Shown: one piece after another, positions 13,892 to 42,527 of the stretch
Position numbering within the stretch: position 1 is the stretch's first letter
Layout: each line of letters begins with the position of its first letter
Assembly: GCA_016866955.1 (NCBI GenBank)
Contig: VGKT01000002.1
Location: forward strand, 16,072 to 80,071
Length of the DNA: 64,000 nucleotides
Source of the DNA: Candidatus Pacearchaeota archaeon
GTDB taxonomy: Archaea > Nanobdellota > Nanobdellia > Pacearchaeales > GW2011-AR1
Direction of reading: 5' to 3'
Notes under the pieces: generated by a model
What the model saw: the letters and a program-made list of their open reading frames with translations, nothing else
What the model was told of the DNA's origin: nothing
The model's database searches: none
Made by a program: the position numbers and the translations under genes

Positions 13892-14046
13892 CGGCCCCAG
13901 GAAGAATCGAACTCCCGTTCTCAGGTTGCTTCGTATCGCACCACCGGGGTGATACGTCCTCCAAAAGGAGGATGATGCGTCAAGGAACCGTGGTTCCTTA
14001 CGCTACGCTCCGAAGCCTGATGTTCTATCCACTAAACTATGGGGCC
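13892..14046 (-). tRNA. tRNA-Arg (anticodon TCG) with a roughly 82-nt intron in the anticodon loop
   Basis: Hand-folded. Acceptor GGCCCCA/TGGGGCC, D-arm GTTT-AGTGGATA-GAAC, anticodon stem TCAGG/CCTGA, loop CTTCGG^intron^A, T-arm GGGAG-TTCGATT-CTTCC. Intron placed at the canonical 37/38 position. Confidence 0.55.
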
Positions 14047-18424: not shown

Positions 18425-18560
18425 TATAACTCCCCTCCTTTCATTTCTTTATCTTCGTTTTTCATATGTGAGAAAACAAAAAAAGCTATATAATTTTATG
18501 AGGTGAAATTTATCACCTCATAAAGATAATAATTATAAACTCAAAATATCTAATTATAAC

Positions 18561-23171: not shown

Positions 23172-26100
23172 TCAGCTTTGTAAAAATCGAGGAAGATAAA
23201 CACACTTGAACCAATTCAAGATACGTGAAATATCGGTCAAACGATCATCAAAACATCCTCGCGTTACAAACAGAGATCCTCGAGATTTATCACGACTTGT
23301 TTTAGAGTTCTTTCCAAGAATAACTCCTGCTTCTTCCAATTCTTCATCAGTACCTGGCACATCATCACGTACAGCAGAAGCAGTTCCTGAAGTTCTTCCA
23401 ATCAATGCTTGCACAGCAGCTTGATTCTTTTGTTTCTTCAAACTATCAAGGCTATCTGATTGAGAAGCATCAAGTCGTACATTTTCAGGATTAGATGGAA
23501 TAATTTTTTTACCAACAACACAAACAAGTTTTTTACTATCAAATTCCCCCTTACGCTTAGTACACATTTCCTCAGCAAGACTCTTACAATCAGCAGGACA
23601 CAACGCACGAGTTTCTCCTGCTTTAGTATCACAGATCTTATCTCCACATGCACTAGGAAGCGTAGTATTAGTAACAATTCCAATAGTACATCCCAAAGGA
23701 TTAGTACAAGTAATCGGAGGTACAAGGATATCTCCCGAACAAGGACAACTACCTGCACAAGCAACAGAAGTAGTCGCTTGACCTGCAAAACAAGGATTCA
23801 TATAAGAAAGTCCGTTTGCCCCACACACAGGAGACGCAGGTTGGCTTGCACAAGAAGGAACACAAGGGCCATAATAAGCAACAGCTACTTGCGCTTGTGC
23901 AGCTTTACAGGGGCTAGAATACGAAATACCATCCTCTCCACATACTAATGGACCAGCAGATATTGAACCAAATAGTGTAGGGCAAGTGGTTGAAATCGTA
24001 GAACACACTCCTTGATATGCAATCGTTATTCCTACTTGAGTAGCTAAACAAGCTTTATCATACGTTACTTCATTTGTACCACACACAGGAGCAGAAGGTT
24101 CGCTTGCGCACGCATATTCAGATCCCCCAGTACATTCATAGAATTCAAGAGACTGCATAACAACCAAAGTATTCTGAGGATTACCTGGCGTTTGTACTTC
24201 CAACTTCGTAAACGTAATACGATAATAGCGTGCAGAAACAGGGGAAGCAAGCATCCGTTTATTCACAGTGCGTGCATCACTCAAAGAAGCACTATCTCGT
24301 ATCGCCCAAGTAACACCGTCATCAGAAGACTCCAGAACAAACTGAGCAACTAATGGATTCCCTCCAAGAAGTTTAAATTGATACGCACCAATAGTACGAG
24401 GAGCAATAAATGAATACTGAATCCATTTTGGTGCACTAGCTGAAACAACCTGCGATTGCCAGAAGTTTGTCCCACCTGAGAAAGCACCCCAGGCCTGTCC
24501 TTGCGGACCACCAACCGTTGGATAATTCAATGCTTCACTATTACTTGATACGGTACCAACTGAAGAAGTATAACTTGACATCGTAGGAACAATAGTACCA
24601 CTCAACGATGTACACCCTGCCTGATTTGTATTCCCCGCACCATCGCTCACACACGTACAGCTACCTTCAAAGCAAGTATGAGTAAATCCAGGCAAACAAA
24701 GTATACCCACTGGAGGAGTCGTACATGCACCAGTAGAAACAATACTCACTCCAAGTGTTTCTGCTTCACATGAATTACCATACGTTACTCCATCATCCCC
24801 ACATACTGGTTTATACACTGCAGAACAAGTAACTGGTTCAGGAATTTTAACACAATGCAACTTTCCACAACCACTCAAACAGCCATTCGCGTCATAAGAA
24901 TTATCTTCAAGTGTACACTTTCCCCCAATTGGAATAAACACTTGAGGACAGGTAACTACATCGGCACAAAGGACAACATCATCTGATACTATATTTCCAC
25001 AAGTAATTGGACATCCCTTTTCATTGAGAACAGGGGCACCATAATGATATCCTTTAGGAGCACGAGGACAAGTCAAAGGCCCACATGCATCTCTGCCATT
25101 ACCTTCACAAGATAACGTACCGCAATCAATTTGACAACCAAAGTGATCAATACCTGGATTGGAATAAGAACAATCCGCAGGGGCAATACAAATCGGAGCA
25201 ACAGGACATACAAACGACTCTTCTCTGAATGCTGCACATTCTCCATCAGAACACGAAGTACAAGGTACAAAATCTCCTCCACGTTCAGGTGAAACACCAG
25301 GAGCAACACAATATAACTTGCTCACATAACACTTCTCTCCTTCACATGAATCAACCTTTTGCCCAAATTCACCAAAGGGATGTTCACTAATATAACATTC
25401 TTCATATAAGTTTTCAGAAACAAAAGATCCTTTACTATCGGTAAAACGTAACGCATGACGAGAATCTCTTCCAAAAGGATAATAGGCAAATTGTTTTGCA
25501 CGTTCACGTCCCTGACAAATACCAATAAAATTACGACTATATTTGCACTCCCAATAGAAAGCAACTCCCCCTCCTAAAGTATCAGCCCAACAAGCATTTC
25601 TATAATCTTTGCCATCTGCACCACACACAGGAGTATAATCGCTCGTACAATGATTTCCACCATCTCCTCCACCTTCTCCTCCACCTTTTCCTCCACCTTC
25701 TCCTCCACCTTTTCCTCCACCAACAATAGTAATGATAGGAGTACACAAAACAGAATCAATAGGTGCATGCGTTAAAGAATCAACACACACTCTTCCAACC
25801 CAAATAGGATCTCCACGAACAGTTTTTTCTCCACATAAATCAACATACCAATTATCAGGTTCGCTCGTCACATCATTACATCCGGCAGGACCGGGAAGAA
25901 TATACGAAAATGATGCTTGAGAGGTTCCCAAAGGATATACGCCTGAATAAAGTACCATCTCTCCGCTCATACCGTAAGCTCCAAAGAAGCTAGGCAACGG
26001 TCCAACTTTGCCATCTGTTCCTCCACCCGTCCCCTTATGAACAAGTCCTCCACGAGAATCAACCAAGTACCATGCTCCATCACCCACGTCTAATTGAAAA

Positions 26101-29100
26101 TAAACCGCAGCTAGATCTTTCTTAGTATCACAAGAGAGTCCAGTCTTTTGAATGCCCCATACTGCAGCAGGAGGTTGCACCTTACAGTCTTGTGGACAAC
26201 TACCCACCGATACCGTTTGAGTACATACCTCTGGCACTTTAGGGACATTGGGAGTAGTCGTAGGAGTAGTTGGTGGAGCAATCACCGTACAACGTTCAGC
26301 ATAAAGTGCCTTATATTCAACACTTTTTAAGAAGCCCTCTACAACTTGTGCACGAGTAGAAATTCCCTGTGTAAGTAAACCAGTCCAGTATGCTTTTCCT
26401 TGAGGATCTGAAGATCGTAAGAACAAACGTTCATACAATGTTTCAACAAACGCATCAGTACTCAACGTAACCAACCCATTAGCAAACGTTGTTGCATCAG
26501 GAGTACTACAACTAAAGGTACCTGAAGTAGAAGTTGCCTTGATAACTGGTAAGGCAAGACAGAAATGCACGTAGTGTGTTCCTCCCGAAAAGTAAGAAGG
26601 AGAATAGGGCACAACGCTACCCGAAGGATACATCGTACCCACCAAAGGAGCAACACTTGCTGCAGTTGTTTGACTCAATTTCCATTGTCCTCCAACATTT
26701 TCATACGTAAAGACAAGATTTCCACCCAAATGAGTCACAAATGAAGTCGTACTCATACCATCTCCACTCGAAGGTTGATAAACCGGACCACCATTCGAAC
26801 ACACACTCGAACCAATCGGAACAAAATCAACTACAATTTTACTTCCAGAACCAGTTCCACTCACTGGAATAGTAATAACCTGTGAAGAGCCATCTGCAAA
26901 ATAAAGTGTCAAAGTTCCTCCACTCCAAGGTTGCACTTTTGCAGCAAATACATCTAATTGATAAGTTCCAGCAGGATAGATTCCCAAAGACTGACCATAT
27001 TCATAATTCAATTGCTGACCATTTCCAATAAATACAAGAGGGTATGCATTGGTAGAAGAAGTCGACCAATATTCTCCTTGAAATGCATGTTGTAGATAGG
27101 CTGAAGTAATAGTCTTTGCAACAGGAAGAGACAATTGCACTATGAAATGATGATCAACTCCCCCGTACGCTGAAAAGGTTCCCCACGGACCAACGCGATC
27201 TTGATCAGCACCAAGATAAGTAGCAGTAATTTTTTGCTCTTGTTGTGTAGAAACAGGAACAACACCGCCAGGAAGACGAACACAGAACGTTGTTTGCTCA
27301 CCTGATTGAGCAGTATACCTTCCTCGTACAATTTGTCCTGAAGCATATTTAATCGAATTAAATGAGCCATGAGGAGGCAATGAAATAGACTGACCATCTA
27401 ACGTTAATGAACCATACGCTGGTCCTCCTTGCGAACCGATCTGCCAAACAGAAGGAGCAGTAAGAGAGAAACCAAGAGGAATCGTACCAATAGAAGATTT
27501 ACTCACAAATCCTGAAACAGGAACTTGCCAAGATGAACGAGAATATCCTTGGAAAGTACCTGCTTGATATCCTGCACTTGTTTCATCATACAAAACAGGG
27601 CAACCTGCAATACCCGTACCTTGTGTCGTAGGCGTTTGAGTAAGTGGAGTAACAAAAGAGGTAGAACTTCCTGGCAATTGCAAACACGTTAGTCCCGCAA
27701 TTCCATTGATACGTACCTGTGTTCCTGGAGGATACGAGCCGCGCCCATCAGGGAAGGATACAACTCCTCCTGGATAACCACCGACGAAATAGGTCCCATC
27801 TCCTTGAATATTGAAAAAGGAATAATAAGCTCCTGTTTGATAGACTACCGTCGTAGCATCATAACCTGCAGGGCGAGGATTCAAAGGTTGCGCACAACTT
27901 GTGGTTGTGGTTGTTGGAGTTGTAGTTGCAGGAGTAGCAGAAGAAGATGAAGAAGAACTTCCAATATACGTACCAGAACGACATTGAGCAGAAACAGTAA
28001 CAGGAGAACAGATATAAGCCGTTGCACTACCAGTAGAAGTTCGACAGGCACATCCTTGATAACCATCAGTTTTTTGCCAAGTAACTAATCGATTACTATC
28101 AGTTGATTCAAAAAATACCCCAATACCTGATAAGGTACATTGTCGTTCATTATTCGCAATCGCATACGTACCTCCACGCTGTGCACACATTGCTTGATTC
28201 TGAATATCAGTCATATCAAAAACATACCAAGGATAATAACAAGTATTTCCTCGCTTTTCACCCTGAAGACCTAGATACGAACAAGCAGAAGAAGCAGCCA
28301 AAGCTTCAAATCGAGGTTCATCGAAATAAGAATGACCAATTGTTTGGAGAGAGGTAGAAGAAACAGTGCACGCATTTCCTGTTGCTTCTCCTGTTTCACA
28401 AATGTTATTTCCACAAACTGCTTTATCTAATTGAGTAATACACGTATCTTTCTGAGGAATTACAAATGGACCAACAGAAGCTCGCTGAACACCATCACCA
28501 AATAATTTCAAAGTAACTTCTTCTCCAAATTTATAGATGAAATACGAATCAATTGTTTCCTGAGCTTTCATATTTCCTGTTGTTCCTTGTTGAATTAATT
28601 GATCCCATCCTCCACGAGAGTTGTAAAGCATGTATGAAGAAGCAAGAACCTTATTAACGCCAAAACTAAAGTCTTGACGTACCCCACTCCCATCAGGTAA
28701 ACATTCTTGTTTTCCTAATTGAATTGTCCATTCATCAATTTTCGGAGAAAGTAATGGAACAAATCCTGGGGCACTAGTTAATTGAGTAACAATTGGAGAA
28801 GAGAAACTGAGAGGAATAAGATCCGATGAAGGAGTAACGGTTTCACAAGGTTTCGCAACAATCTTCCCATTCGGACATTGATACGTTTCTCCACCGGTTG
28901 TACACGTATCAAAATTAATATCCAAGTTACAGGTTGGATCCCATCCAAAAGCTCCACACGTATCAGGGTCAGGACCAGTTGTTTCTCCATCAGTTCCTGA
29001 ACAAGGTCCAGACGTACAGGAAGGACTATCACACGGAACTTGTTGAGCAGGAGCTAAACAAGCATACGGCCCAGTACAAAGAGGAATACTATAACAGGTT

Positions 29101-30767
29101 TCAGCAGGGAGAGTAATAATAGCCTGGCTCCCAATAACTTCAGAAGAAATAATCGTAACCGCTACCCCTCCCACGTCTATCGATGGACCTGGTTGCCCGG
29201 AGGGACGATTAGGATCCCCAACAACCTCATCATGAGGAAAAAGTTTTTCAATAGGCTCAATCTTAACTCCCTCAGGAACAGGACCACAAGAAGGATCCCA
29301 TCTTTCAGTAGATTTAATTTTTGGAAGAGGATAATTCTCTGCTCCAGACCACACCCGGCTAGGAGCAGGTGTTTCACAGGCACCATATCGACTGGCAGTC
29401 AATTGTAGATTTGGGTTTTGGCAAGCAGCAACACGAAGAGTACACGAGTTTGAATAGGTTTTACCATCAGAGCCACAAACTGGAGTATAGTCCGCAAGGC
29501 ACCAGGTAGGGCATACAGTTGGGTTAGGAGTAGGAGTAGGAGTAGGAGCAGATTCAGTACTACATTCTTTTGTCACACGCACCCCTTCAGCAGAACAGAA
29601 CGAATCCCCTTCTTGTGCAAGTAATTCTTCACAACTTGGACGAGGACATAACATCTTACAATCTCCTGCTGCCACATCACCTGCAATCGTACATCCTTGC
29701 GCTTCCGCTTGATCAGAAAGTTCTGGACAGGTTCTCTTCGCAATCGTTTCATACACACTTTCAGGAGCAGGTTCCCAATTACTTGTATCCTTAACATAAT
29801 ACACGGGGAGAATTTTAAAATCACCGTCAACAGTACCATCTCCATTCAAATCACCTTCTATTCGTTGCCCATCAGGTACGCTTTCCCCTCCTTTTTCGCT
29901 CTCAACATCCGTACCAGTACAACCCTGACAAGTAACAAGCACTGGTTCACCTGGACCAGTTTTTTTAACCAAACCAATAACAGATAAACCTTCAGGAAGA
30001 GTATGCCCTTCTCCTTCTTCTTGAGGATACTTATATACATCTGCAAAATAATACTTATCATAACCATCTCCACCATCATCTCCACCATCACCATCTCCAC
30101 CATCATCTCCCCCTTCACTTCCGCCATCTCCCCCATCTCCTCCATCTCCCCCATCTCCTCCATCTCCTCCATCTCCCCCATCTCCTCCATCTCCCCCATC
30201 TCCTCCATCTCCCCCATCTCCTCCATCTCCTCCATCTCCTCCATCTCCACCATCATCTCCACCATCTCCTCCATCTCCACCATCATCATCATCATCACCA
30301 TCTCCCCCACTTCCGCCATCACCATCATCACTCAAATATTCAAACGTTACATGTCCCGTCGGAGAAAGTAAATCTGCAAAAGGAGCAAAAAAAGCAGCAA
30401 GGGGAGTTCGAGCAGGTTCAGCAGAAGGAACATCACTAAATCCAAACGCACGCAACACAAATAACGTACCCTGTCGAGTTGCTGCCACATCAGTTGTATA
30501 CAAAGGAACGGTAAAACAATCCCCAAGATTATCAGAGATACATTTCAAAGTACCTGAGCGAGGAACACTATCGGCAATATACAAAAGCGTTTCAGGTTTA
30601 ATCAATCCGTAAGTATATCCTGCAACCCAATATTGAATATCTTGTTCTCCAGCAAACGCACCATCTCGATTTCTATCAAAATTAAATGTTTTTAACGAAG
30701 CACCCGAAACAAAACTAACCAATAAACAAAGTCCAATTAAAAAGAAAACAAAACGCATTAAGCGCAT
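23172..30767 (-). CDS. giant secreted multidomain surface protein (2531 aa)
   Basis: Signal peptide, (GD)n/(GGDG)n low-complexity tract, PTPT linker, six Kazal-like modules (C..YxPVCG(S/A/D)DGxTYxNxC), F5/8 type C discoidin-like domain, DUF4214-like module, dockerin-like [11 protein letters not shown] motif, and GGGK/GGGE repeats. Confidence 0.85.
30060..30300. repeat. short-period coding repeat (ccatctcc[t/c])n encoding the Gly/Asp tract of the giant protein
   Basis: Seen directly in the sequence. Confidence 0.85.
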
Positions 30768-31273
30768 ATGGTTTCACTCCCCAAAGGAATACGAAGATAT
30801 TCTTTTTCAGTTGACATATTACGTATCACCACTGTTCCCGTAACTGCATCAACGGAGTGTGCACGCACGCGATACGAAAGAACACCATCACGAATAGGCA
30901 ATAATCCTTCTCCTCGCCAGAAAAACCAAGAATACGTTCGCTCTTTCACCGTCGTAGGTTGGGCAGAAGAATCAATAAACGTCCATCCAAGAGGAAGTTG
31001 TTCTTCGAGTAAAAAAGAAGAAGGAGGATTAAAGGCATTCACATTCACTTTAACTTGTACCGTTAGAACATTCCCTTCATCTTCAATAATCGCACGTTGT
31101 AAACAAATATGTTCGTCAGAAAAAAATCGAGCGGCACCCATTCCCCCTAAACTCAAAACCACTAAACAAATACCTATCAAAAGTCCGATACTAATCGCAC
31201 CGAGTCCTCGCTGAGAAGCAATCACCTGCATCATATACTGGGCATGTACGCATTTATAAATACTCCTCGACAA
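30758..31273 (-). CDS. hypothetical membrane-anchored protein, co-transcribed with the giant gene
   Basis: One TM helix. Overlaps the giant gene start by 10 nt. The real start may be the internal Met-Met at about 31232, preceded by ATTTATAAA. Confidence 0.45.
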
Positions 31274-31531: not shown

Positions 31532-31723
31532 ATGAACACGGGCCCTCAGAAGCTTTTTATATACCTCACAAATGCAAAATATGCTCTTGATAACTTTACC
31601 TCAAATAAAAGAAAAAAGAATAAGAAAAAAATCTTGAAACAAGGGGGTATTCCAATAAAAAAGATACTAAAGCAGCGCTTATGCGTGGATAATATGTTCA
31701 GAAAAATTCGAAGGAAAAGTTAA
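31532..31723 (+). CDS. hypothetical basic small protein
   Basis: 63-aa Lys-rich ORF. Weak support. Confidence 0.2.
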   Translation: MNTGPQKLFIYLTNAKYALDNFTSNKRKKNKKKILKQGGIPIKKILKQRLCVDNMFRKIRRKS

Positions 31724-31915: not shown

Positions 31916-34060
31916 CTAAACTCTTTTTGCACAAGTAACGCTTGTTAAATATCCGCAACGATCTCCGGTACAAGCAGGGGCTGCAACCCAAGAAGTGCCA
32001 TCCCATGATACCTTCACGTTTCCTTTACGTCTACATCCGTGCGTCCAGCATTGTGTTGTATGATTTGTAGAATAAGCATGTCCTGCTTCAACACAAAGTC
32101 GATCTAAAGATTGTTTAACTTGAGCAGCAGAACGAGCGGGAGAGATAGTAACAGTTTGAACAGTCGCACAAGTAACGCTTGTTAAATATCCGCAACGATC
32201 TCCGTCACAAGCAGGGGCTGCAACCCAAGAAGTGCCATCCCATGATACCTTCACGTTTCCTTTACGTCTACATCCGTGCGTCCAGCATTGTGTTGTATGA
32301 TTTGTAGAATAAGCATGTCCTGCTTCAACACAAAGTCGATCTAAAGATGGTTTAACTTGAGCAGCAGAACGAGCGGGAGAGATAGTAACAGTTTGAACAG
32401 CATTCACAGGTTTAGGAATCGCAACAGTAAATGTTTGCACAGGTTTAGGAATCGCAACAGTAAATGTTTGTCCAGAACTCAAGGTCACCACTAACGTTGC
32501 CCCTTCAAAGGGCGTATGAGCTGGTTGCATATACAGAACAAAGGGAGTCGTCCCAATACCAAAGGGAATCTCTTGCTTATACGCTTTGTTCACAAGGGTC
32601 CTTGATGAATCATTATACACTACAATCGGCCAAGCTCGGGTATTTGTAGTTGACCAATATTCTCCTGCCCAAGCATGAGTAAGATCTAATCCACGAATAA
32701 CACCACCAGTAGTAGAAGTAAGATTAAAACGAACAGCGAAATCAGTTCCTCCTGCTTGGACAAATTGATTCCATTGTCCTGCACGATCTTCACTCTGATC
32801 ACGATACGAAGCGGTACCTGAAGCTACCTGTGTGCATGCTCCATTACTACATCCTCCCGGACAAGTAAAGGGAGTAAGCGCCATTCCACCAGAAGCACAA
32901 TAGTTTTCTTGCACCATATTACCATTGCATGAATCAGTTTGAGGAGTTCCTCCCTGAGTAGTGCTTCCCTGCACAAAGATGTTTTTACCATCAGGAGCAT
33001 AGGAAGTAACATCGCTATCAGTGCATTCCGAAGTCCCACATTCAGGATTCCAAACTTTTTCTCCAGTAAAACCACTACATGCAATAAAATAGGCTCTTCC
33101 ATTTTGCAGTCTGAAATCTTCGTTTGTTCCAGAAGGTGAAGGTTGATAAGTTCGATTAGTGCTGAACCATTTTGCATTACCATTTTCAAGTGTAGGCTCT
33201 GTAATGGTATTACAACTTATTCCTTTCCGCTGTAACTCTCCCAATACGTTAGACGCCTTGTAATTAAATCTATTACTACATCTTGGCTCAGAAACAAGAT
33301 TATAACCGGATACAAGACTTATGTTTAAGGTTCCATCAATAAAATAACCAGTAAATGTAACTGGGCCTGTTGTTCTAACAAGAATTCCTTCATTTGTTTT
33401 TAAAGCAGGATTAAAATCATTGGACCATTTACCAAAGAGATAAGATGATGATTCATATTTGTTATTCCTTAATAAATAAATACTTGCCCCATTTGAACCA
33501 GTAACCCATTTGCTTAAATTGCCATCAGGCATTTGGACAGGAGCACCATAATACCCTGAAGAAAGATTAACAGAAATATAATTGCTTGGAGAGATACAAG
33601 CCCCATTTGAACAGCCATTAGGACACTCCAAAGGTTTAGAGTAAAGTAATCCGCCATCGCAATAAAATTCAACCAAGGTATTTTTTGTTTTATTCATTCC
33701 GATATTGTCATAGGGTCTTTCTTGTGCACAATAATCAGTTATTGTATATGGCGTACAGGCTGATTGATTTAAACATTTTGTTGCTCCGGTTGTAGTTCCA
33801 AGAACCTCATAGTTCTTTCCACCGTCGCTATCCGTACACGTAGCAGGAGGAACAGAAGGCACTGAAGTATTCACTGAAGTATTCACTGAAGTATTCACTG
33901 AAGTATTCACTGAAGTATTCACTGAAGTATCAGGACTAAATCGAACATCCGGGGATTTTGCAAACCAACTAAACGGATTCCACCACACCGCACTCACCAA
34001 CGAAACAGACAAAAGCGCCACTAACAAGAAAATAAAAACAACACGGGCCCCTTTATGCAT
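31916..34060 (-). CDS. secreted repeat-containing protein sharing a domain with the giant protein
   Basis: Signal peptide, (NTSV)6 repeat, and a Cys-rich region. The HAWAGEYWSTTNTRAWPIVVY segment is homologous to [20 protein letters not shown] in the giant protein. Two tandem 80-aa C-terminal repeats. Confidence 0.75.
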   Translation of the reverse strand: MHKGARVVFIFLLVALLSVSLVSAVWWNPFSWFAKSPDVRFSPDTSVNTSVNTSVNTSVNTSVNTSVPSVPPATCTDSDGGKNYEVLGTTTGATKCLNQSACTPYTITDYCAQERPYDNIGMNKTKNTLVEFYCDGGLLYSKPLECPNGCSNGACISPSNYISVNLSSGYYGAPVQMPDGNLSKWVTGSNGASIYLLRNNKYESSSYLFGKWSNDFNPALKTNEGILVRTTGPVTFTGYFIDGTLNISLVSGYNLVSEPRCSNRFNYKASNVLGELQRKGISCNTITEPTLENGNAKWFSTNRTYQPSPSGTNEDFRLQNGRAYFIACSGFTGEKVWNPECGTSECTDSDVTSYAPDGKNIFVQGSTTQGGTPQTDSCNGNMVQENYCASGGMALTPFTCPGGCSNGACTQVASGTASYRDQSEDRAGQWNQFVQAGGTDFAVRFNLTSTTGGVIRGLDLTHAWAGEYWSTTNTRAWPIVVYNDSSRTLVNKAYKQEIPFGIGTTPFVLYMQPAHTPFEGATLVVTLSSGQTFTVAIPKPVQTFTVAIPKPVNAVQTVTISPARSAAQVKPSLDRLCVEAGHAYSTNHTTQCWTHGCRRKGNVKVSWDGTSWVAAPACDGDRCGYLTSVTCATVQTVTISPARSAAQVKQSLDRLCVEAGHAYSTNHTTQCWTHGCRRKGNVKVSWDGTSWVAAPACTGDRCGYLTSVTCAKRV
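31927..32406. repeat. 2 x 240-bp near-identical tandem duplication inside the 714-aa gene
   Basis: Direct comparison. The sequence from gcacaagtaacgcttgttaaatatccgcaacg to agtttgaacag recurs with only a few mismatches. Confidence 0.85.
32418..32483. repeat. 2 x 33-bp direct repeat (TFTVAIPKPVQ twice)
   Basis: cacaggtttaggaatcgcaacagtaaatgtttg occurs twice in tandem. Confidence 0.8.
33858..33930. repeat. 12-nt tandem repeat (tcactgaagtat)x6 encoding (NTSV)n
   Basis: Seen directly in the sequence. Confidence 0.85.
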
Positions 34061-34062
34061 AC

Positions 34063-34082
34063 GAGAGAGAGAGAGAGAGAGA
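34063..34082. repeat. (GA)10 dinucleotide microsatellite between the TATA box and start codon of the 714-aa gene
   Basis: gagagagagagagagagaga sits between the ATG (34058-34060, minus strand) and CTATATAAA (34085-34093). Confidence 0.95.
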
Positions 34083-34084
34083 CG

Positions 34085-34093
34085 CTATATAAA
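34085..34093 (-). promoter_or_regulatory. TATA box of the 714-aa secreted-protein gene
   Basis: CTATATAAA lies 24 nt from the leaderless ATG. The spacer is entirely (GA)10. Confidence 0.55.
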
Positions 34094-34424
34094 CATTTCG
34101 CCAAAAACGGCTCAGTAGAAGAGGAGATAAAACGTAAAGAAAACCAGTAGGTTAGAAGACTCTACTCGCAACAAAATGCAATTATAAAAGTACAAAAACA
34201 TGAGGAAGTGCAAGCGTGGTGTGAAGAACCTGAAGCGCATCAAAAAAAGAGTCCCAAGCTCAAGATAAAGAGATCTGCATATATTCATACCGAGTAAGAA
34301 AAAGAAGGAAGGGGAACTATTATTTTCTTATGGGGTAAGAAAATACCTGAATACCTGCTCTCGCACTTCATCAAAACATACATTCAGAACCTCACAAAAA
34401 GGTAAGTAAACAATAAACCTATCT

Positions 34425-34979
34425 TTACTTCTCACTCAACTTAACTGCTGCACGAATATTTTTATTCAATTGTTCCATAGAATCATCTAATTGTTGTTTA
34501 TTCTTAGTTCCAGTACATACCAACTTCCCGTTACTAAACAATAAGAACGTAGCCGTAGGCTCAACTAATTTATACACCAACCCTGGAAATTGTTCAGGTT
34601 CATATTCTGTATTTTCAAGTTGTAATGCAAGTACATTCAAATTCAATTGTAAATCGATGCTTCCAGAAGCAACAATATTCTGCACGGTAATCTTTGGAAC
34701 AGTGGTGATACGTACTCCAATTTTACCAATTTGTTTCATCACTGCTTTAATGACTTCTTTTACTTGTGCCACCGATTTAGTACCCGTACACACCAGATTT
34801 CCAGAACTAAACACTAACACTGCAGATTTTGGTTTCTCGATACGCAACACCAAACCAGGAAATTGCTCAGGATTATATTCAGTATTACTTTGAGAACGTG
34901 CAAGTTTAGTCAAAGAAACTTCCTTACCTAAAGAAGCGGTAGCAACAATATTTTGGACCTTCAAATCCGATGTACCCAT
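34425..34979 (-). CDS. tbp: TATA-box binding protein
   Basis: Two direct repeats, each with a QNIVA..NTEYxPEQFPGLV..LxFSxGxLVCTGTK signature. Confidence 0.9.
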   Translation of the reverse strand: MGTSDLKVQNIVATASLGKEVSLTKLARSQSNTEYNPEQFPGLVLRIEKPKSAVLVFSSGNLVCTGTKSVAQVKEVIKAVMKQIGKIGVRITTVPKITVQNIVASGSIDLQLNLNVLALQLENTEYEPEQFPGLVYKLVEPTATFLLFSNGKLVCTGTKNKQQLDDSMEQLNKNIRAAVKLSEK

Positions 34980-35053: not shown

Positions 35054-36766
35054 TCACTGTAATCCAAAACCACCAGAGGCGTGTTGTTTCTTCACCAACG
35101 CCTTAATCTCATCCAAGGTAGCTATATCATGCGGTTTCCGATCAGGACGATAATGTAAAATACGTGGAAAACGTAATCCAAATCCTGAAGTATACCGTGG
35201 ACTTGGTTGAATATTTTGATACGTAATACTCACCACAAGTTGGGGTTTCACTCGGACCATATTTCCTTCAGTATGCGTAATCAACGGTTTCAAAAGTTTT
35301 GTCATTGCTTCATAGGTCATCCCTTCTTCCTCTTTCTCTTTCAATCCACTACTCACCATTCCCAATTCTTTGTAATGTGCCCCTTCTTTACATGCAACCA
35401 CATAACTCGTCAACCAGCCCCCTCGTTTACCAGTTCCTGTCTCTGCACCCACAATAACCACATCTAAATCAGCTACAAGAGGTTTTAGTTTAACCATGTA
35501 CCCTACTCGCCTCCCTGGGCGATAAGGAGCATCTAACTTCTTAATCATAATACCCTCTTCACCTAAAGCAAGCGCTTTTTTGTAAAATCGTTCAGCAACA
35601 GCCAGGTCATCAGTAACTATCTGTTCAGAAGGATGAATCTCTTTATGAACAGGAATAATCTTCTCAAGTAATTTCCTTCGCTCGACAAAAGGCAATTCAG
35701 TCACCCCTTCTCCTTTATAATACAACACATCAAACACATTGACGACCACTGGCAATTGTTTCACTAATTCTTCAATATGATGCTTTCGTCTAATACGTTG
35801 GCTAATTGCTTCGAATGGTTTTGTCTTGCCTGTTTTCGGGTCATGCCCCACTACCTCAGCATCTAAAATATAAGTAGTATTTCCCAACGTTTTCTGCATC
35901 ACTTGTACTACATCAGGAAATTGATGTGTAACTGATTCCAATTTTCGAGTAAACAAACGAATTTCTCCTTTTTCATCACGCATCAGCACCATCCGAAACC
36001 CATCATACTTATGTTCCAAAGCAGCAGGTTTCCCACAAATCTCAAATGCTTCAGCTAAATCCGTCACTTTCACCGGCAACATAACTTGCAAAGGTTTATT
36101 CGGATGTAACACCATTTTCCGCAACGCAGCTTTCCCTCGCGCAGCAGCATGTAGCACGCCCGCAAAGTCAGTAGTCAAATCATAACTCTCTTGCACCAAT
36201 GCAATGACTTCACTTTCATCAGGATACCAGGCTTGTGCAATCGCATCAACCAACACCGCCCCTTGGACACCAATACGCAAATCGCCCAATAAAGTCCGTA
36301 CAATATATTTTGCTTCCAAAGCTGAAGCCTGTCCTAACAATCCTTCAACCACTCCAAGCTTTCGTTCCACACTTCCTTTCCCACTCAATCCCAAAATACT
36401 TTCTAATTGGGTAAAAAGATAAGCAGTAGTCAAAGATTTTGAAAACAATCCTTTTTGTGTTCGTTTTTCAACAAGTTTCTCCGTAATCTCTCCCAAATCT
36501 CCTTGTGTTGCAAACAAAGCCTCAATCTTTTCAAAGGTCTTTCCAAATGTTTGTGCAAGTCCTTTCATCACTAATTGCTTCGAAATACCAAATTCTCGAT
36601 TATCATAATCAGCAGTTACTTTTCCATGAAGCAAATACACAAATCGTGCATCTTCTTTTAACAAAAGAGGTAAAAACTTCGCAAGAATATCGCGTTTCTC
36701 CAAACGCTTGGTTGTTCCTCCAAGCTTCTCATACACTTCAACTAATTCCTTATACTGCATCACCAT
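35054..36766 (-). CDS. lig: ATP-dependent DNA ligase
   Basis: Adenylation motif I KYDGFR, OB domain and conserved C-terminal ligase motifs. Confidence 0.9.
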   Translation of the reverse strand: MVMQYKELVEVYEKLGGTTKRLEKRDILAKFLPLLLKEDARFVYLLHGKVTADYDNREFGISKQLVMKGLAQTFGKTFEKIEALFATQGDLGEITEKLVEKRTQKGLFSKSLTTAYLFTQLESILGLSGKGSVERKLGVVEGLLGQASALEAKYIVRTLLGDLRIGVQGAVLVDAIAQAWYPDESEVIALVQESYDLTTDFAGVLHAAARGKAALRKMVLHPNKPLQVMLPVKVTDLAEAFEICGKPAALEHKYDGFRMVLMRDEKGEIRLFTRKLESVTHQFPDVVQVMQKTLGNTTYILDAEVVGHDPKTGKTKPFEAISQRIRRKHHIEELVKQLPVVVNVFDVLYYKGEGVTELPFVERRKLLEKIIPVHKEIHPSEQIVTDDLAVAERFYKKALALGEEGIMIKKLDAPYRPGRRVGYMVKLKPLVADLDVVIVGAETGTGKRGGWLTSYVVACKEGAHYKELGMVSSGLKEKEEEGMTYEAMTKLLKPLITHTEGNMVRVKPQLVVSITYQNIQPSPRYTSGFGLRFPRILHYRPDRKPHDIATLDEIKALVKKQHASGGFGLQ

Positions 36767-36983
36767 ACTCTGATTGACAAAGACGAGTATAAAAGCATAT
36801 CTTTCAAAAGAAAATTCCTACCGACGATAAAAACTACTTACCGTCGATACAAAAAGAAGTGCAAACACTAACGAAAGAATCATCACTCTCTTGTACGTCG
36901 TTTCTCCAACAATTACTCATATATAAACATTTATTTTTTCCTCAAAACAACAACTATATAAAAACAAAAAAGAGAAGAATGAT

Positions 36984-37685
36984 ATGAAAAAAGAAACAAG
37001 ATATCAACTCTTCTTACTCACTCTTTTCCTGGCCGTCTGGATCTGGGCAGCAAGTGACCCGGTATATCCACATGATTGGCTCCTTGAAAATTATCTCACT
37101 TTCATCACTGTCCCCTTAATACTTATCACTGCACGCTATTTCCGTCTTTCTAATCTTTCATATACGCTCATCACGCTATTTATGATACTCCATACAATTG
37201 GTAGTCATTATACGTATGCAGAAGTTCCCTTTGGTTATACCCTCCAAGACTGGTTTGGTTCAAGTAGAAACATGTACGATCGCTTAGTACACTTTTGTTT
37301 CGGTTTTCTCATTGCTTACCCCATGCGTGAAATCTTTATGCGTATTGGAAAACAGCGTGGATTCTGGAGTTATTGGATTCCAATTGAACTCACGCTAGCA
37401 ACATCTTGTATATATGAACTCATTGAATGGGGTGTTGCAGCAATAGTAAATCCTGAAGCAGGACTCGCTTTCCTCGGAAGTCAAGGAGATATTTGGGATG
37501 CACAAAAAGATATGGCTCTTGCAGGAGTGGGCGCACTTATCGCCTTAGGTATTGTCTTTTTCATTAACCTCAAATATAATAAAAACGTCTGGTCAGATTT
37601 CAAAGCCTCATTACGCATCCCAAAAGATGACAAACCATTGGGAGAAGTTAAACTCAGAGAATTAGTAAAGAGAAATAACTACTAA
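36984..37685 (+). CDS. DUF2238 (YjdF-like) membrane protein
   Basis: Multi-TM protein with HTIGSHYTYAEVPFG, characteristic of the family. Confidence 0.6.
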   Translation: MKKETRYQLFLLTLFLAVWIWAASDPVYPHDWLLENYLTFITVPLILITARYFRLSNLSYTLITLFMILHTIGSHYTYAEVPFGYTLQDWFGSSRNMYDRLVHFCFGFLIAYPMREIFMRIGKQRGFWSYWIPIELTLATSCIYELIEWGVAAIVNPEAGLAFLGSQGDIWDAQKDMALAGVGALIALGIVFFINLKYNKNVWSDFKASLRIPKDDKPLGEVKLRELVKRNNY

Positions 37686-39576: not shown

Positions 39577-41445
39577 TTAGGAATGTATATCTTTAGTGCT
39601 ATGAAAAACAATATATAACAATAGAACTAATCCGATTAAACTTAGTATCCGACCAATATAATTAAAGATATTATATGACTGATAAAATTCTATGCCTTTA
39701 GAATAATAATCTGGAGTAGCGGACATCATTCCAGGACCTATTATTTCAATAGGAATCTCTTTTTTAGATATAATATCTCTAGCTTTCCAAGAAGAATGAT
39801 AAAATTCTTTAAATATTACTTTTCCTTTTTCAGAACCATTTAGATAAACAATAACCAAATCTGGATTTTCTCTCTCAAACAAATAATTTAACTCTGCAAT
39901 GTTATTTGAATAAGAAATTATAGATTTTTTATTTAAATATTCATAAATATTCTTTGTAGAATCAAAAAAATCAATTGAGTTGACCTTCTTAAATAATAAA
40001 TTAGCACTTTCGAATTTCTTATCTGCTAAACTATCATTATTTACTTCTATATGACTTACACCAAACCAATCAAGATAATATAATGTTGAATTTAAATCCG
40101 AAGAACCCCATATCGAATCAATAAAATAAAAAGTATAATTTTGAAAAACTATTCCTTGATCATAATATCCTGAAATTTGACTCTGTCCAGGATAAAAGAA
40201 ATTCATCGCTTTTGCACTATAACCTACTGCTGCAAATCTATAATTATTAAAATTATTATTCATGGATAAATTATTATTTTCAAAATTATCCCAGAATACT
40301 CCAAAATTACTATCCCAATATTCATGACTATAATTATTGTTATTATCTCTTATAGCCTGATAACTCCAAATTAGCCCTAATATCAATATTAATATAACAA
40401 TTATTTTTAGATATTTTATATGATTAAATTTATTTAACATAATACCTAAAGAAATACAAATAATAACTGCTAAAAGAAAAATAAATCTTGCAGATTCTAT
40501 TCCAGCAGGATAAAACTTTCCAAGACCTCCCGATAATAAAAATAAAGAGATAATTCCAGCAGCAATTAAAAAGTTTAATATTTTATCTTTTCTTAAAAGT
40601 TTAAATCTATAAGCATAAACAAAAATAATACATAAGAATAAAGAAAATAATACCCCTATAGAACCGCCGTAATGACCCCATCTGAAAGTCTCATTGACTC
40701 CTAAAAAAGATATAAAACTAGGAATATAATTCATCTCTTTTGCTATATAACTTGAAGATTTTAATAAGAAAGGAATTAGCCAACATGAAGAAATAAGAAT
40801 ACCTGGAATTACAAACTTTATTATATATATAAGTTTATTATAAATATTTGAATTAACAAATAAGATTCTAAGAGATAAAATAAAAATAACACATAGGCCT
40901 GTGAATATATGACTTAATATAGAAATTGCAATAATAGGTGCAAGCAATAAAGAATATTTAGGTTTTGAAAAAGAATATTCTAATAATAACATAGAAATAG
41001 GAATAGTCCATAGAGAAAACATAAATGGATAATTTCCAACGGCTATAAAATAATAAGAATTTGCCAATACAGTTAAAAAAAAGAGTGAAGAAATAAGAGA
41101 ATTAAGTATATTTTTAATATAATAATTTAACAAAAAGAAAATACCCGATGTAGTTATAACTATACTTAAAAAACACAAAATAACACTACCAAAAAATAGA
41201 TCATTAAACATATTTAATAAATAATAAAATAAAGGAGGATAATATTGTAATAATGGGCCTCCAGAATACCATGCATAATTCCAACTAGCTCCTGGAAAAG
41301 ACTGCATATATTTAACTTTACTCAAGTGTCCTAATGAATCTAGTCCGATAGGATGATTTGTGTTCAAAACAGGATAAAATAATATAAAACTTACTAAGAT
41401 TATTATTAAAGCAGAATAAAAATTGTTTAATTTGAAAAAGTCCAT
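39577..41445 (-). CDS. polytopic membrane protein, putative GT-C-fold glycosyltransferase
   Basis: About 14 TM helices followed by a C-terminal soluble domain. AT-rich. Architecture resembles PMT/ArnT/AglB-type GT-C enzymes. No catalytic motif verified. Confidence 0.5.
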   Translation of the reverse strand: MDFFKLNNFYSALIIILVSFILFYPVLNTNHPIGLDSLGHLSKVKYMQSFPGASWNYAWYSGGPLLQYYPPLFYYLLNMFNDLFFGSVILCFLSIVITTSGIFFLLNYYIKNILNSLISSLFFLTVLANSYYFIAVGNYPFMFSLWTIPISMLLLEYSFSKPKYSLLLAPIIAISILSHIFTGLCVIFILSLRILFVNSNIYNKLIYIIKFVIPGILISSCWLIPFLLKSSSYIAKEMNYIPSFISFLGVNETFRWGHYGGSIGVLFSLFLCIIFVYAYRFKLLRKDKILNFLIAAGIISLFLLSGGLGKFYPAGIESARFIFLLAVIICISLGIMLNKFNHIKYLKIIVILILILGLIWSYQAIRDNNNNYSHEYWDSNFGVFWDNFENNNLSMNNNFNNYRFAAVGYSAKAMNFFYPGQSQISGYYDQGIVFQNYTFYFIDSIWGSSDLNSTLYYLDWFGVSHIEVNNDSLADKKFESANLLFKKVNSIDFFDSTKNIYEYLNKKSIISYSNNIAELNYLFERENPDLVIVYLNGSEKGKVIFKEFYHSSWKARDIISKKEIPIEIIGPGMMSATPDYYSKGIEFYQSYNIFNYIGRILSLIGLVLLLYIVFHSTKDIHS

Positions 41446-42494
41446 ATCTTATTACCTATAAAATTTAATATGAATGAAAACCCAATAGCTATAATCTGTG
41501 AAATTAGGTAATAAACTCCTAAAAGTTCGGTAAATGAATATAATACTGCTAAATTAATAATAAGAGCACAAATACTCACAATCAAAAATTTATAATATTT
41601 CGATAAAATCTTATATTTAATGCTTTCATTGAAAGTTAATACCTTATTTAAAATAAAATTACTTGAAGCCGCTAAAAAGAAAGAAAGAATAGCTGAAAAT
41701 ATATAATAAACTCCTAAAAGTTCAGTAAATGAATATAATACTGCTAAATTAATAAATGTGCCAATTAATCCGACTAAAGAAAATTTAATGAATTTACCGG
41801 ATAGATTTCTATGAGAAAAAATATAACTTGATAGGTTTCTAAGATAATAAATAATCTCTTTTATTCCTGCCTTACTCTTTCCATGAACGCGATTAGTGAA
41901 AATTATAGGTACTTCTTTAATTTTAGAATACTTGGCTTTAACAATAATCTCCAATAAAATCTTAAATCCCTTTGGATTAATTTTTATCCCATTTAAACAT
42001 TCTTTTTTTATCATAAAAAATCCAGACATTGGATCTTTAATGTTAGTAAATACTCTGGCCAAAAAAGTTGCTCCCTTAGAAAGAATTTTTCTATAATTTC
42101 CCCAACCAACTATATTTCCTCCTTTGACATACCTACTACCTATAACAATATCAACATCTTCATCTTTTATTAAAGAGTACATTTTATTTATGCTATCAGA
42201 AGGATGACTCAAATCCGCATCCATAACTGCAAGCACTTTGCTTTTTGATATTTTAAAACCTGCTAATACTGCTGAAGAAAGCCCCAATTTTCCAGTTCTA
42301 TGTATAACTCTAACTTTCTTATCTTTCTTTGATATATAATCTAATAAATCGCCAGTACCATCAGGAGAGTTATCATCAACTATAATGATTTCCCCATTTA
42401 TTCTATTTTTATTGAACTTTTTTTTTAAATTATTTATTAGAATAACAATATTCTCTTTCTCATTATATGTGGGAATTACGACTGATAAATCCAT
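41427..42494 (-). CDS. GT2 polyprenol-phosphate glycosyltransferase (DPM1-like) fused to a GtrA-like domain
   Basis: VVIPTYNE, DDNSPDGT and DADLSH motifs. The C-terminal 4-TM GtrA-like module has an internal repeat (NLAVLYSFTELLGVYY twice). Confidence 0.8.
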   Translation of the reverse strand: MDLSVVIPTYNEKENIVILINNLKKKFNKNRINGEIIIVDDNSPDGTGDLLDYISKKDKKVRVIHRTGKLGLSSAVLAGFKISKSKVLAVMDADLSHPSDSINKMYSLIKDEDVDIVIGSRYVKGGNIVGWGNYRKILSKGATFLARVFTNIKDPMSGFFMIKKECLNGIKINPKGFKILLEIIVKAKYSKIKEVPIIFTNRVHGKSKAGIKEIIYYLRNLSSYIFSHRNLSGKFIKFSLVGLIGTFINLAVLYSFTELLGVYYIFSAILSFFLAASSNFILNKVLTFNESIKYKILSKYYKFLIVSICALIINLAVLYSFTELLGVYYLISQIIAIGFSFILNFIGNKIWTFSN

Positions 42495-42527
42495 AAGAAA
42501 GATAATAAAAAAAATAGCTTTTAATAC

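Follow-up and report, generated by a model that had tools for sequence, protein, structure and literature searches.

A perfect dinucleotide repeat in the TATA-to-start spacer of a secreted-protein gene: a candidate slippage-tuned promoter in a DPANN archaeon

Introduction

Bacteria use slippage at repeats as a textbook means of phase variation, and archaeal promoters resemble the TATA promoters of eukaryotes. Could a simple repeat that changes its length by slippage also set the output of an archaeal promoter? This question is raised by a locus in a 64,000-nt stretch of contig VGKT01000002.1 (positions 16,072 to 80,071 of the contig; assembly GCA_016866955.1, Candidatus Pacearchaeota archaeon), which is referred to as the window throughout. 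Here, a (GA)10 tract lies between the predicted TATA box and the start codon of a gene for a 714-residue secreted protein, and an earlier reading, made without database searches (the sequence-only reading), had proposed this tract as a candidate phase-variation switch.

Bacterial promoter-spacer loci of this kind include the (TA)n tract between the -35 and -10 elements of hifA/hifB in Haemophilus influenzae, the poly-G and poly-C tracts of porA and opc in Neisseria meningitidis, the poly-A tract of vlp in Mycoplasma hyorhinis, and the poly-C tract of fim in Bordetella. In archaea, our literature search found no documented phase variation based on simple sequence repeats, and the traceable archaeal example is invertase-based: the haloarchaeal virus phiCh1, whose invertase-driven tail-fibre switching is cited in PMC10791045. 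A phase variation review of 2025 lists archaeal phase-variable loci as a future extension (PMC11868660), and a preprint states that contingency loci are known in archaea, with no detail in its text (PMC12633550).

Results

The repeat and the promoter in which it lies

Tandem Repeats Finder and direct reading both gave a perfect (GA)10 at 34063-34082, which reads (TC)10 on the coding (minus) strand, and the reported tract before the 714-aa gene starting at 34060 was thereby borne out. The further claim that the repeat exactly fills a 24-nt spacer holds in part: the repeat does lie in the spacer, but it makes up 20 of the 25 nt between the TATA 8-mer and the ATG, and a spacer of 24 nt is obtained only when the box is taken to include the G following TTTATATA. 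The elements on either side of the repeat are listed in Table 1. An in-frame TAG within the TATA box blocks any upstream extension of the open reading frame (ORF), and no purine motif resembling a Shine-Dalgarno (SD) sequence was found 5' of the ATG; an upstream-extended ORF and an SD-led start were ruled out on these two grounds. With an 8-bp TATA box and an A-rich element like the B recognition element (BRE) directly upstream (GCGAAATG-TTTATATA), the promoter has the build of an archaeal leaderless promoter. A-richness and a position adjoining the TATA box are described for the BRE (PMC7289017), the haloarchaeal form being CGAAA (PMC2151090). Judged by its composition and place, the BRE-like GCGAAATG would point transcription at the 714-aa gene.

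Table 1. Positions, in window coordinates, of the promoter elements, the 714-aa gene, and the repeats and intergenic region associated with them
Feature	Positions	Strand	Basis or remark
Intergenic stretch following TBP; contains five T-runs (5 nt or longer)	34103-34424	-	archaeal termination signals
BRE-like purine/A-rich element GCGAAATG	34094-34101	-	directly 5' of the TATA box; kept in L004 and L092
TATA box TTTATATA	34086-34093	-	8/8 against the lineage consensus TTTWWATA; kept in L004 and L092
GCG	34083-34085	-	between the TATA box and (TC)10
GT	34061-34062	-	between (TC)10 and the ATG
ATG start codon of the 714-aa gene	34058-34060	-	L004 and L092 orthologues start at the aligned position
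Gene for the 714-aa secreted, Cys-rich modular protein	31916-34060	-	ORF and translation
Sec-type signal peptide MHKGARVVFIFLLVALLSVSLVSA, then conserved motif VWWNPFSWF	33989-34060	-	translation; cleavage site predicted from the sequence pattern
11-nt direct repeat GGGCCCGTGTT, upstream copy	34040-34050	-	bounds the L003 deletion
Perfect in-frame tandem repeat, 12 nt x 5.9, (TSVN)n	33860-33930	-	Tandem Repeats Finder; just after the leader
In-frame tandem duplications, 237 nt x 2 (98%) and 33 nt x 2 (100%)	31929-32470	-	Tandem Repeats Finder; 3' part of the gene
11-nt direct repeat GGGCCCGTGTT, downstream copy	31535-31545	-	bounds the L003 deletion

The (GA)10 is the longest simple repeat of the window and its sole dinucleotide tract of more than five units, and the number of 10-unit dinucleotide tracts expected per window under a first-order Markov model is about 8e-7. 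On the basis of this expectation and this rank, the tract is real and chance does not account for it. In 812 kb, comprising the window and 80 loci of related genomes, there are four dinucleotide tracts of at least six units; the other three are AT/TA, which leaves (GA)10 as the only non-AT tract. An assembly artefact was ruled out as its source, as exactly this tract recurs in six other contigs, which stem from different samples and assemblers. The tract has the form expected of contingency loci of the promoter-spacer type, namely a perfect, slippable mono- to tetranucleotide repeat between spacing-dependent promoter elements.

The composition of the spacer is unusual as well. In comparison to 17 canonical spacers, its purine fraction is low (0.12 versus a mean of 0.41) and its GC fraction high (0.56 versus 0.35). 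An organism-wide rule of purine-poor spacers, which would prevent upstream starts, was considered and ruled out, since the purine content of the 17 canonical spacers ranges from 14 to 71%.

The sequence-only reading had also held that simple repeats are absent from all other promoters of the window. This is nearly correct, the exception being a T8 run at 42507-42514 (minus strand) in the TATA-to-ATG spacer of a gene for a family-2 glycosyltransferase/GtrA protein (41427..42494); no third core promoter of the window has a simple repeat. The site is located inside a low-GC island at 40-44 kb (GC 0.24-0.27) that has two glycosyltransferases.

A fixed distance between TATA box and start codon

To describe promoter spacing in the window, we took the best TATA-like 8-mer 5' of each non-overlapping ORF. 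Twelve other promoters with a perfect TATA box have spacers of 21-22 nt, and 25 nt occurs only at the 714-aa gene. The same was seen on the larger scale of the 812 kb, where, for ORFs of 100 aa or more, we counted the perfect boxes 5' of the first ATG (n = 109). A spacer of 21 nt was found at 53 of the 109 boxes, 22 nt at 12, 23 nt at eight, and 24 and 25 nt at two each, with any other length at 0-5 per bin. This distribution indicates that most genes of the lineage are leaderless, with transcription presumably starting from the A of the ATG, and that a 25-nt spacer occurs at background frequency only. Its excess over the 21-nt mode, 4 bases, corresponds to exactly two TC units. As the TATA-to-ATG distance of the lineage is fixed at 21-22 nt, the repeat occupies a spacing-critical position, and the claim of a leaderless promoter whose start keeps a constant distance to the TATA box is in agreement with this rule. 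An ATG at 21-23 nt from the TATA box, as expected of leaderless promoters in this lineage, is found in the orthologues (21 nt) and not in the window allele (25 nt). For 94% of the promoters of Methanocaldococcus (M.) jannaschii, a spacing of 23 +/- 2 nt has been described (PMC2699501).

The tight rule is also of direct use for the annotation of start codons in Pacearchaeota/Woesearchaeota genomes. In the window, it corrects several ORF calls that had been placed at the first TTG or GTG start, for example to 13848 instead of 13860 and to 31231 instead of 31273. We further observed tandem duplications with a period of 21 nt, equal to the TATA-to-ATG spacer length, at the starts of genes in three places: at 18510-18559, directly 5' of a TrmB-like gene (18561, plus strand), at 36966-37004, spanning the ATG of a DUF2238 gene (36984, plus strand), and in the leader-coding part of the L013 homologue (about 1905-1950).

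Tract length in the population and in relatives

Contigs whose encoded TBP is identical to that of the window were regarded as belonging to the same population; the tract is covered by six of them, all of which are consensus assemblies. L001, L002, L005, and L006 match the window at 100% identity, and L007 and L008 have one common single-nucleotide polymorphism (SNP) at 35324. All six have (TC)10, so that 10 units were found in 6/6 other covering assemblies (99.9-100% identity) from at least five samples and two SNP haplotypes. The SNP at 35324, an A-to-G change within the DNA ligase gene, is found in L007, L008, and L009, the latter of which stops short of the tract, and represents a second haplotype of the lake.

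Different lengths were found between lineages. In L004, whose TBP gene has 87% nucleotide identity, the promoter reads TTTATATA GCGTCTCTCTCTCTTTCTCGT ATG, and in L092, L093, and L095 (83%) it reads TTTATATA GGGCTTCTCTCTCTTTCTCGC ATG, with a spacer of 21 nt in all four. In L003 (90%), where the TATA box has decayed to TTTACAAA, it is followed by TTGCTTTTTCTTATTTTTTGT ATG, again with 21 nt. The orthologues have a 16-nt imperfect TC-rich stretch in a 21-nt spacer, the window 20 nt in 25 nt, and a multiple alignment against the window has a single clean 4-nt gap, which is located within the tract. In the distant homologue L098, which has a similar leader, TTTAAATA is followed by a non-repetitive 21-nt spacer; like that of L003, it is T-rich and devoid of the TC pattern. 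By parsimony, the ancestral spacer would have been an imperfect TC-rich stretch of 21 nt, and the lineage of the window would have lost a TT interruption and gained two units.

The length of the tract has thus changed during evolution, without variation in the sampled population; within the consensus assemblies the count is uniform, and differences exist only between lineages (76-90% nucleotide identity). The sequence-only reading had asked for a comparison of GA copy number across genomes and had named an identical count as the outcome that would speak against it. Lineages do differ (16/21 versus 20/25 nt), whereas in the population the identical 10 units, i.e., that very outcome, were obtained.

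Three further searches for such promoters gave no additional orthologue. A metagenome-wide scan with the pattern TTTATATAGCG N{4,34} GTATGCATAAAG returned only two matches (L010 and L011), both by chance and in an unrelated coding region, the 51-aa leader as protein-search query returned no candidates for further orthologous promoters, and a scan of viral contigs for a TATA box, at least seven TC units, and an ATG had zero matches.

As homopurine/homopyrimidine mirror tracts are prone to form triplexes under negative supercoiling, it was in principle possible that the tract acts via an H-DNA triplex, or as a regulator site, independently of spacing. It is a perfect GA/TC mirror repeat of 20 bp, which is within the sequence criterion for H-DNA (about 15 bp or more), and a TC-rich spacer is kept in L004 and L092. 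However, common descent fully explains the TC-richness of these relatives, as the leader and the first about 45 codons (79-86% nucleotide identity) have diverged about as fast as the flanking genes (83-87%). In addition, L098 and L003 do without a TC pattern, there is no known candidate binding protein, and no such tract was found at other promoters in the 812 kb. We therefore consider a structural or binding role, as predicted from the mirror symmetry, very improbable.

A possible slow dial of expression

The reading to which we lean slightly, on balance, is that of a slippage-born promoter microsatellite that would act as a slow dial of expression on the timescale of strain divergence, and not as a rapid switch within the population. 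Replication slippage would have produced the microsatellite in the core promoter of a leaderless archaeal gene; the tract would then have become a perfect (TC)10, gained two units, and moved the ATG to 25 nt. Slippage is the suggested cause because the gain of units is what slippage does once a tract is perfect, and slippage on repeats is seen in vitro with the archaeal polymerases PolB and PolD (PMC4134008).

In the standard register of the lineage, RNA polymerase would initiate at the A of the start codon, about 22 nt beyond the TATA box. In the window allele, this canonical position would fall on T34064 within the tract. As the coding strand of the tract is purine-free and the polymerase prefers a purine after a pyrimidine, initiation is predicted to slide to G34062, which lies 23 nt after the box, has a C before it, and is the first purine beyond GCG. 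This preference, for a pyrimidine at -1 and a purine at +1, is universal among RNA polymerases (PMC7289017), and 23 nt is within the observed range of spacers. The (TC)10 allele would then give a transcript beginning pppGU-AUG with a leader of 2 nt, the translation of which probably continues, perhaps with lower efficiency. In leaderless mRNAs, the start codon has to be at the 5' end or very close to it (PMC4574771, PMC7531240), and in haloarchaea a 4-nt leader on the hsp70 mRNA is translated, with flanking bases modulating the output (PMC4574771). Other lengths would have other consequences: eight units would bring back the ideal leaderless register, and nine would place the G at 21 nt. With 11 or more units, all purines would lie beyond 24 nt, leading to initiation on a pyrimidine and a longer leader without SD sequence, and with six or fewer the start site would lie inside the ORF. 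The dial would accordingly have an ON plateau at about 8-10 units and OFF flanks. The start at G34062, the effect on expression, and the mutation rate of the tract are inferred.

Several points weigh against this slow dial. In Escherichia coli, 70S initiation is abolished by 5-10 extra nucleotides (PMC7531240). The polarity, with 21 nt as the ancestral and 25 nt as the derived state, comes from parsimony over four lineages only. Finally, the uniform 10 units of the population could reflect selection, low mutability, or the masking of minor alleles by the consensus.

The 714-aa protein and its replacement between strains

The 714-aa product has a signal peptide with the typical layout of a charged, a hydrophobic, and a small-x-small region, as read from its sequence, with cleavage predicted at MHKGARVVFIFLLVALLSVSLVSA/VWWNP, and this leader is kept in L004, L092, L098, L015, and L013. 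A Pfam search with the whole protein and with segments gave no family above the cutoff, the PDB contained no sequence match, and no significant fold match to PDB entries was found for the AlphaFold model. This model has a mean pLDDT (predicted local distance difference test) of 53 and is confident only for the signal helix and two CTDSDGG...CPxGCxxGAC modules. The homologues, from DPANN and candidate phyla radiation (CPR) organisms, are large multi-domain proteins of extracellular type with S-layer, CARDB, PEGA, and laminin-G domains. An exact look-up of the 714-aa product returned no record, because assemblies break within the gene. The description of the product as a repeat-rich surface protein agrees with the signal peptide, the Cys-rich modules of extracellular type, and the in-frame tandem repeats; as no anchor was seen, its retention at the surface is putative.

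A second repeat-rich secreted protein is encoded nearby. The giant protein of 2531 aa (23172-30767) has three Kazal-type inhibitor domains, a DUF4214 domain, and an F5/8 type C domain, with in-frame repeats of 9 nt x 30 (30063-30329) and 12 nt x 5.5 (25656-25721), and the start of its gene overlaps a small upstream ORF (30758-31273). It shares a region of about 160 aa with the 714-aa protein (29% identity).

Apart from the tract, the locus varies by other routes. Beyond VWWNP(F/S), the window, L004, and L092 have mature proteins that are unalignable or have only shuffled Cys-rich modules in common. The contigs L001 and L002, two independent assemblies, stop at window position 33970, 3 bases from the point where the window and L004 diverge, and L005, L006, and L007 stop inside the 12-nt repeat. 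These contig ends suggest branching of the assembly graph caused by co-occurring variants, i.e., strains that would have different passenger domains behind a common leader. In L003 (ERR14822415; L003 2286-2360), a 2.5-kb deletion extends exactly between the GGGCCCGTGTT copies, from codon 8 to window position 31545, so that only the first eight codons of the gene are retained behind the decayed TTTACAAA. L094, L096, and L097 have other sequence downstream of TBP.

Such losses bring up the question of whether the tract is a sign of promoter decay, i.e., a neutral or slightly harmful slippage accident that has weakened or silenced a dispensable gene about to be lost, without an adaptive or reversible role. 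The gene is dispensable, as exemplified by L003 and by the three loci with other sequence at this place, and its spacer is out of register, 25 nt being a length of background frequency, and GC-richer than normal over the region that must melt. However, the 714-aa ORF is intact, and the TATA box and the BRE-like element are perfect. As the internal repeats of 12, 33, and 237 nt are all multiples of three and perfect or nearly so, the reading frame appears to be held open by selection and to have evolved recently under it. Moreover, a start at G34062 would use a spacing that also serves other genes. Together, these aspects make decay an unlikely account in our view.

On the opposite side stands a true contingency locus, in which frequent gain and loss of units within populations would stochastically turn the secreted protein on at 8-10 units and off at other lengths via the leaderless TATA-to-start register. 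In support of it, a perfect 10-unit dinucleotide tract lies in the most spacing-sensitive part of a promoter, its length varies between lineages, and the target, a repeat-rich secreted protein, is subject to replacement or deletion between strains. Among the five genes whose leader has the exact motif VSAxWWNPFxW, two, those of the window and of L015, have long promoter microsatellites, the other three having the canonical 21 nt. Consensus assemblies hide minor alleles, and the in vitro slippage described above concerns the replicative polymerases of archaea. On the other hand, the assemblies of the population agree on 10 units, and the fixed allele is off the canonical register, which is odd for a mostly-ON locus unless OFF is favoured. 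Archaea tolerate short leaders, which blurs the distinction between on and off, no such case of repeat-based phase variation in archaea is documented in the literature searched, and the loci are too few for statistics. Rapid switching is, in consequence, something we regard as improbable.

For the phase-variation switch originally proposed, this means that its geometry, its target, and an evolutionary change of length are retained, and that no variation within the population is visible. Strict on/off switching is doubtful, as archaeal start spacing tolerates a few nucleotides (PMC2699501) and a 4-nt leader is translated (PMC4574771). We give a slightly lower chance still to the broader view that this is the first simple-sequence contingency promoter in Archaea and recurs in a DPANN family with VSAVWWNPFxWF leaders, as (TC)10 here and as (TA)15 at L015 373-402.

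Genomic and organismal context

Next upstream on the same strand is the TBP gene (34425-34979), followed by a gene for an ATP-dependent DNA ligase, with RadB nearby; TFE-alpha, ScpB, and AlaRS are also encoded in the window. TBP is 78-92% identical to the TBPs of metagenome-assembled genomes (MAGs) of Pacearchaeota/Woesearchaeota (Nanoarchaeota in GTDB), and exactly its sequence is found on contigs of the Joint Genome Institute (JGI) samples 3300020200 and 3300020197, which appear to be part of the Lake Tanganyika depth series. The organism is a freshwater DPANN archaeon (Pacearchaeota/Woesearchaeota), and the TATA/BRE promoter is therefore the proper frame of reference. The window also contains an intron-containing tRNA (13892-14046; 155 nt in total, with a long intron) that was found with Rfam and not reported by ARAGORN.

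The intergenic region between TBP and the 714-aa gene has 364 nt in the window, 138 nt in L004, and 46-47 nt in L092 and L003. In the window, it contained only short, unconvincing ORFs and no Rfam match; a TATA-like CTTTTATA is present at 34190-34183. Archaeal terminators are oligo-T or oligo-pyrimidine signals (PMC2151090), and because of the five T-runs in this region, the 714-aa gene is probably transcribed alone, with read-through from TBP being an unlikely source of mRNA competent for translation. Neither an invertase nor a reverse transcriptase was seen adjoining the locus.

Discussion

The locus shares with the bacterial promoter-spacer loci a perfect simple repeat between elements whose distance sets the output, a surface or secreted target, and slippage as the presumed source of variation. 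It differs from them in that an archaeal TATA box and a leaderless start take the place of the sigma-70 -35/-10 hexamers. A change of length would here hit the position of the start site together with the 5' end that is needed for leaderless translation. Furthermore, it is known from sequence, with consensus assemblies that lack length variation within the population. It is a single candidate locus, unproven as a switch.

In comparison to the canonical leaderless promoters of Sulfolobus/Saccharolobus, Haloferax, and Pyrobaculum (PMC2151090, PMC7531240, PMC7289017), the promoter has the same A-rich BRE-like element, 8-bp TATA box, lack of an SD sequence, and ATG at about the distance of the start, a design that is also present at most genes of the window. 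What sets it apart is the spacer, which has 25 instead of 21-22 nt, consists almost entirely of a dinucleotide repeat, and combines a low purine with a high GC content.

Eukaryotic promoter microsatellites, such as the tandem repeats of yeast promoters and GA-repeat/GAGA elements, tune expression. By analogy, repeat length may be a heritable, mutable modifier of TATA-type transcription here, too. The eukaryotic repeats, however, act mainly via nucleosome positioning or dedicated factors upstream of the core promoter, whereas the present tract is itself the core-promoter spacer.

Diversity-generating retroelements have been reported in DPANN and CPR genomes. Like the inversion in phiCh1, they target surface or adhesion proteins of archaea or their viruses; the mechanisms of the two, mutagenic retrohoming and site-specific inversion, are entirely different from the one considered for the tract.

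If the tract is functional, a single mutation would couple two effects, on the position of the transcription start and on the translatability of the mRNA. If the proposed dial is real, it would offer a simple model for the stochastic control of surface proteins in DPANN archaea, which are uncultured episymbionts with fast-evolving host-contact proteins. Even without switching, the natural alleles of 21 and 25 nt bear on the question of how strictly archaeal RNA polymerase keeps its distance from the TATA box.

A further tract was observed in L015, from the Nanoarchaeota MAG H43-bin007_1. Here, a (TA)15 at 373-402, within the core promoter, ends 13 nt 5' of the ATG (416) of a 498-aa gene, the leader of which (...FISFVSAVWWNPFTWF) is of the VSAVWWNPFxWF type and matches that of the window gene. 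The BRE-adjacent TTTATATA of L015 would be 37 nt from the ATG, and an (AT)9 tract (278-295) is located about 100 nt further upstream of the (TA)15. In total, three of the four dinucleotide tracts of at least six units in the 812 kb lie upstream of genes of the VSAVWWNPFxWF-leader family.

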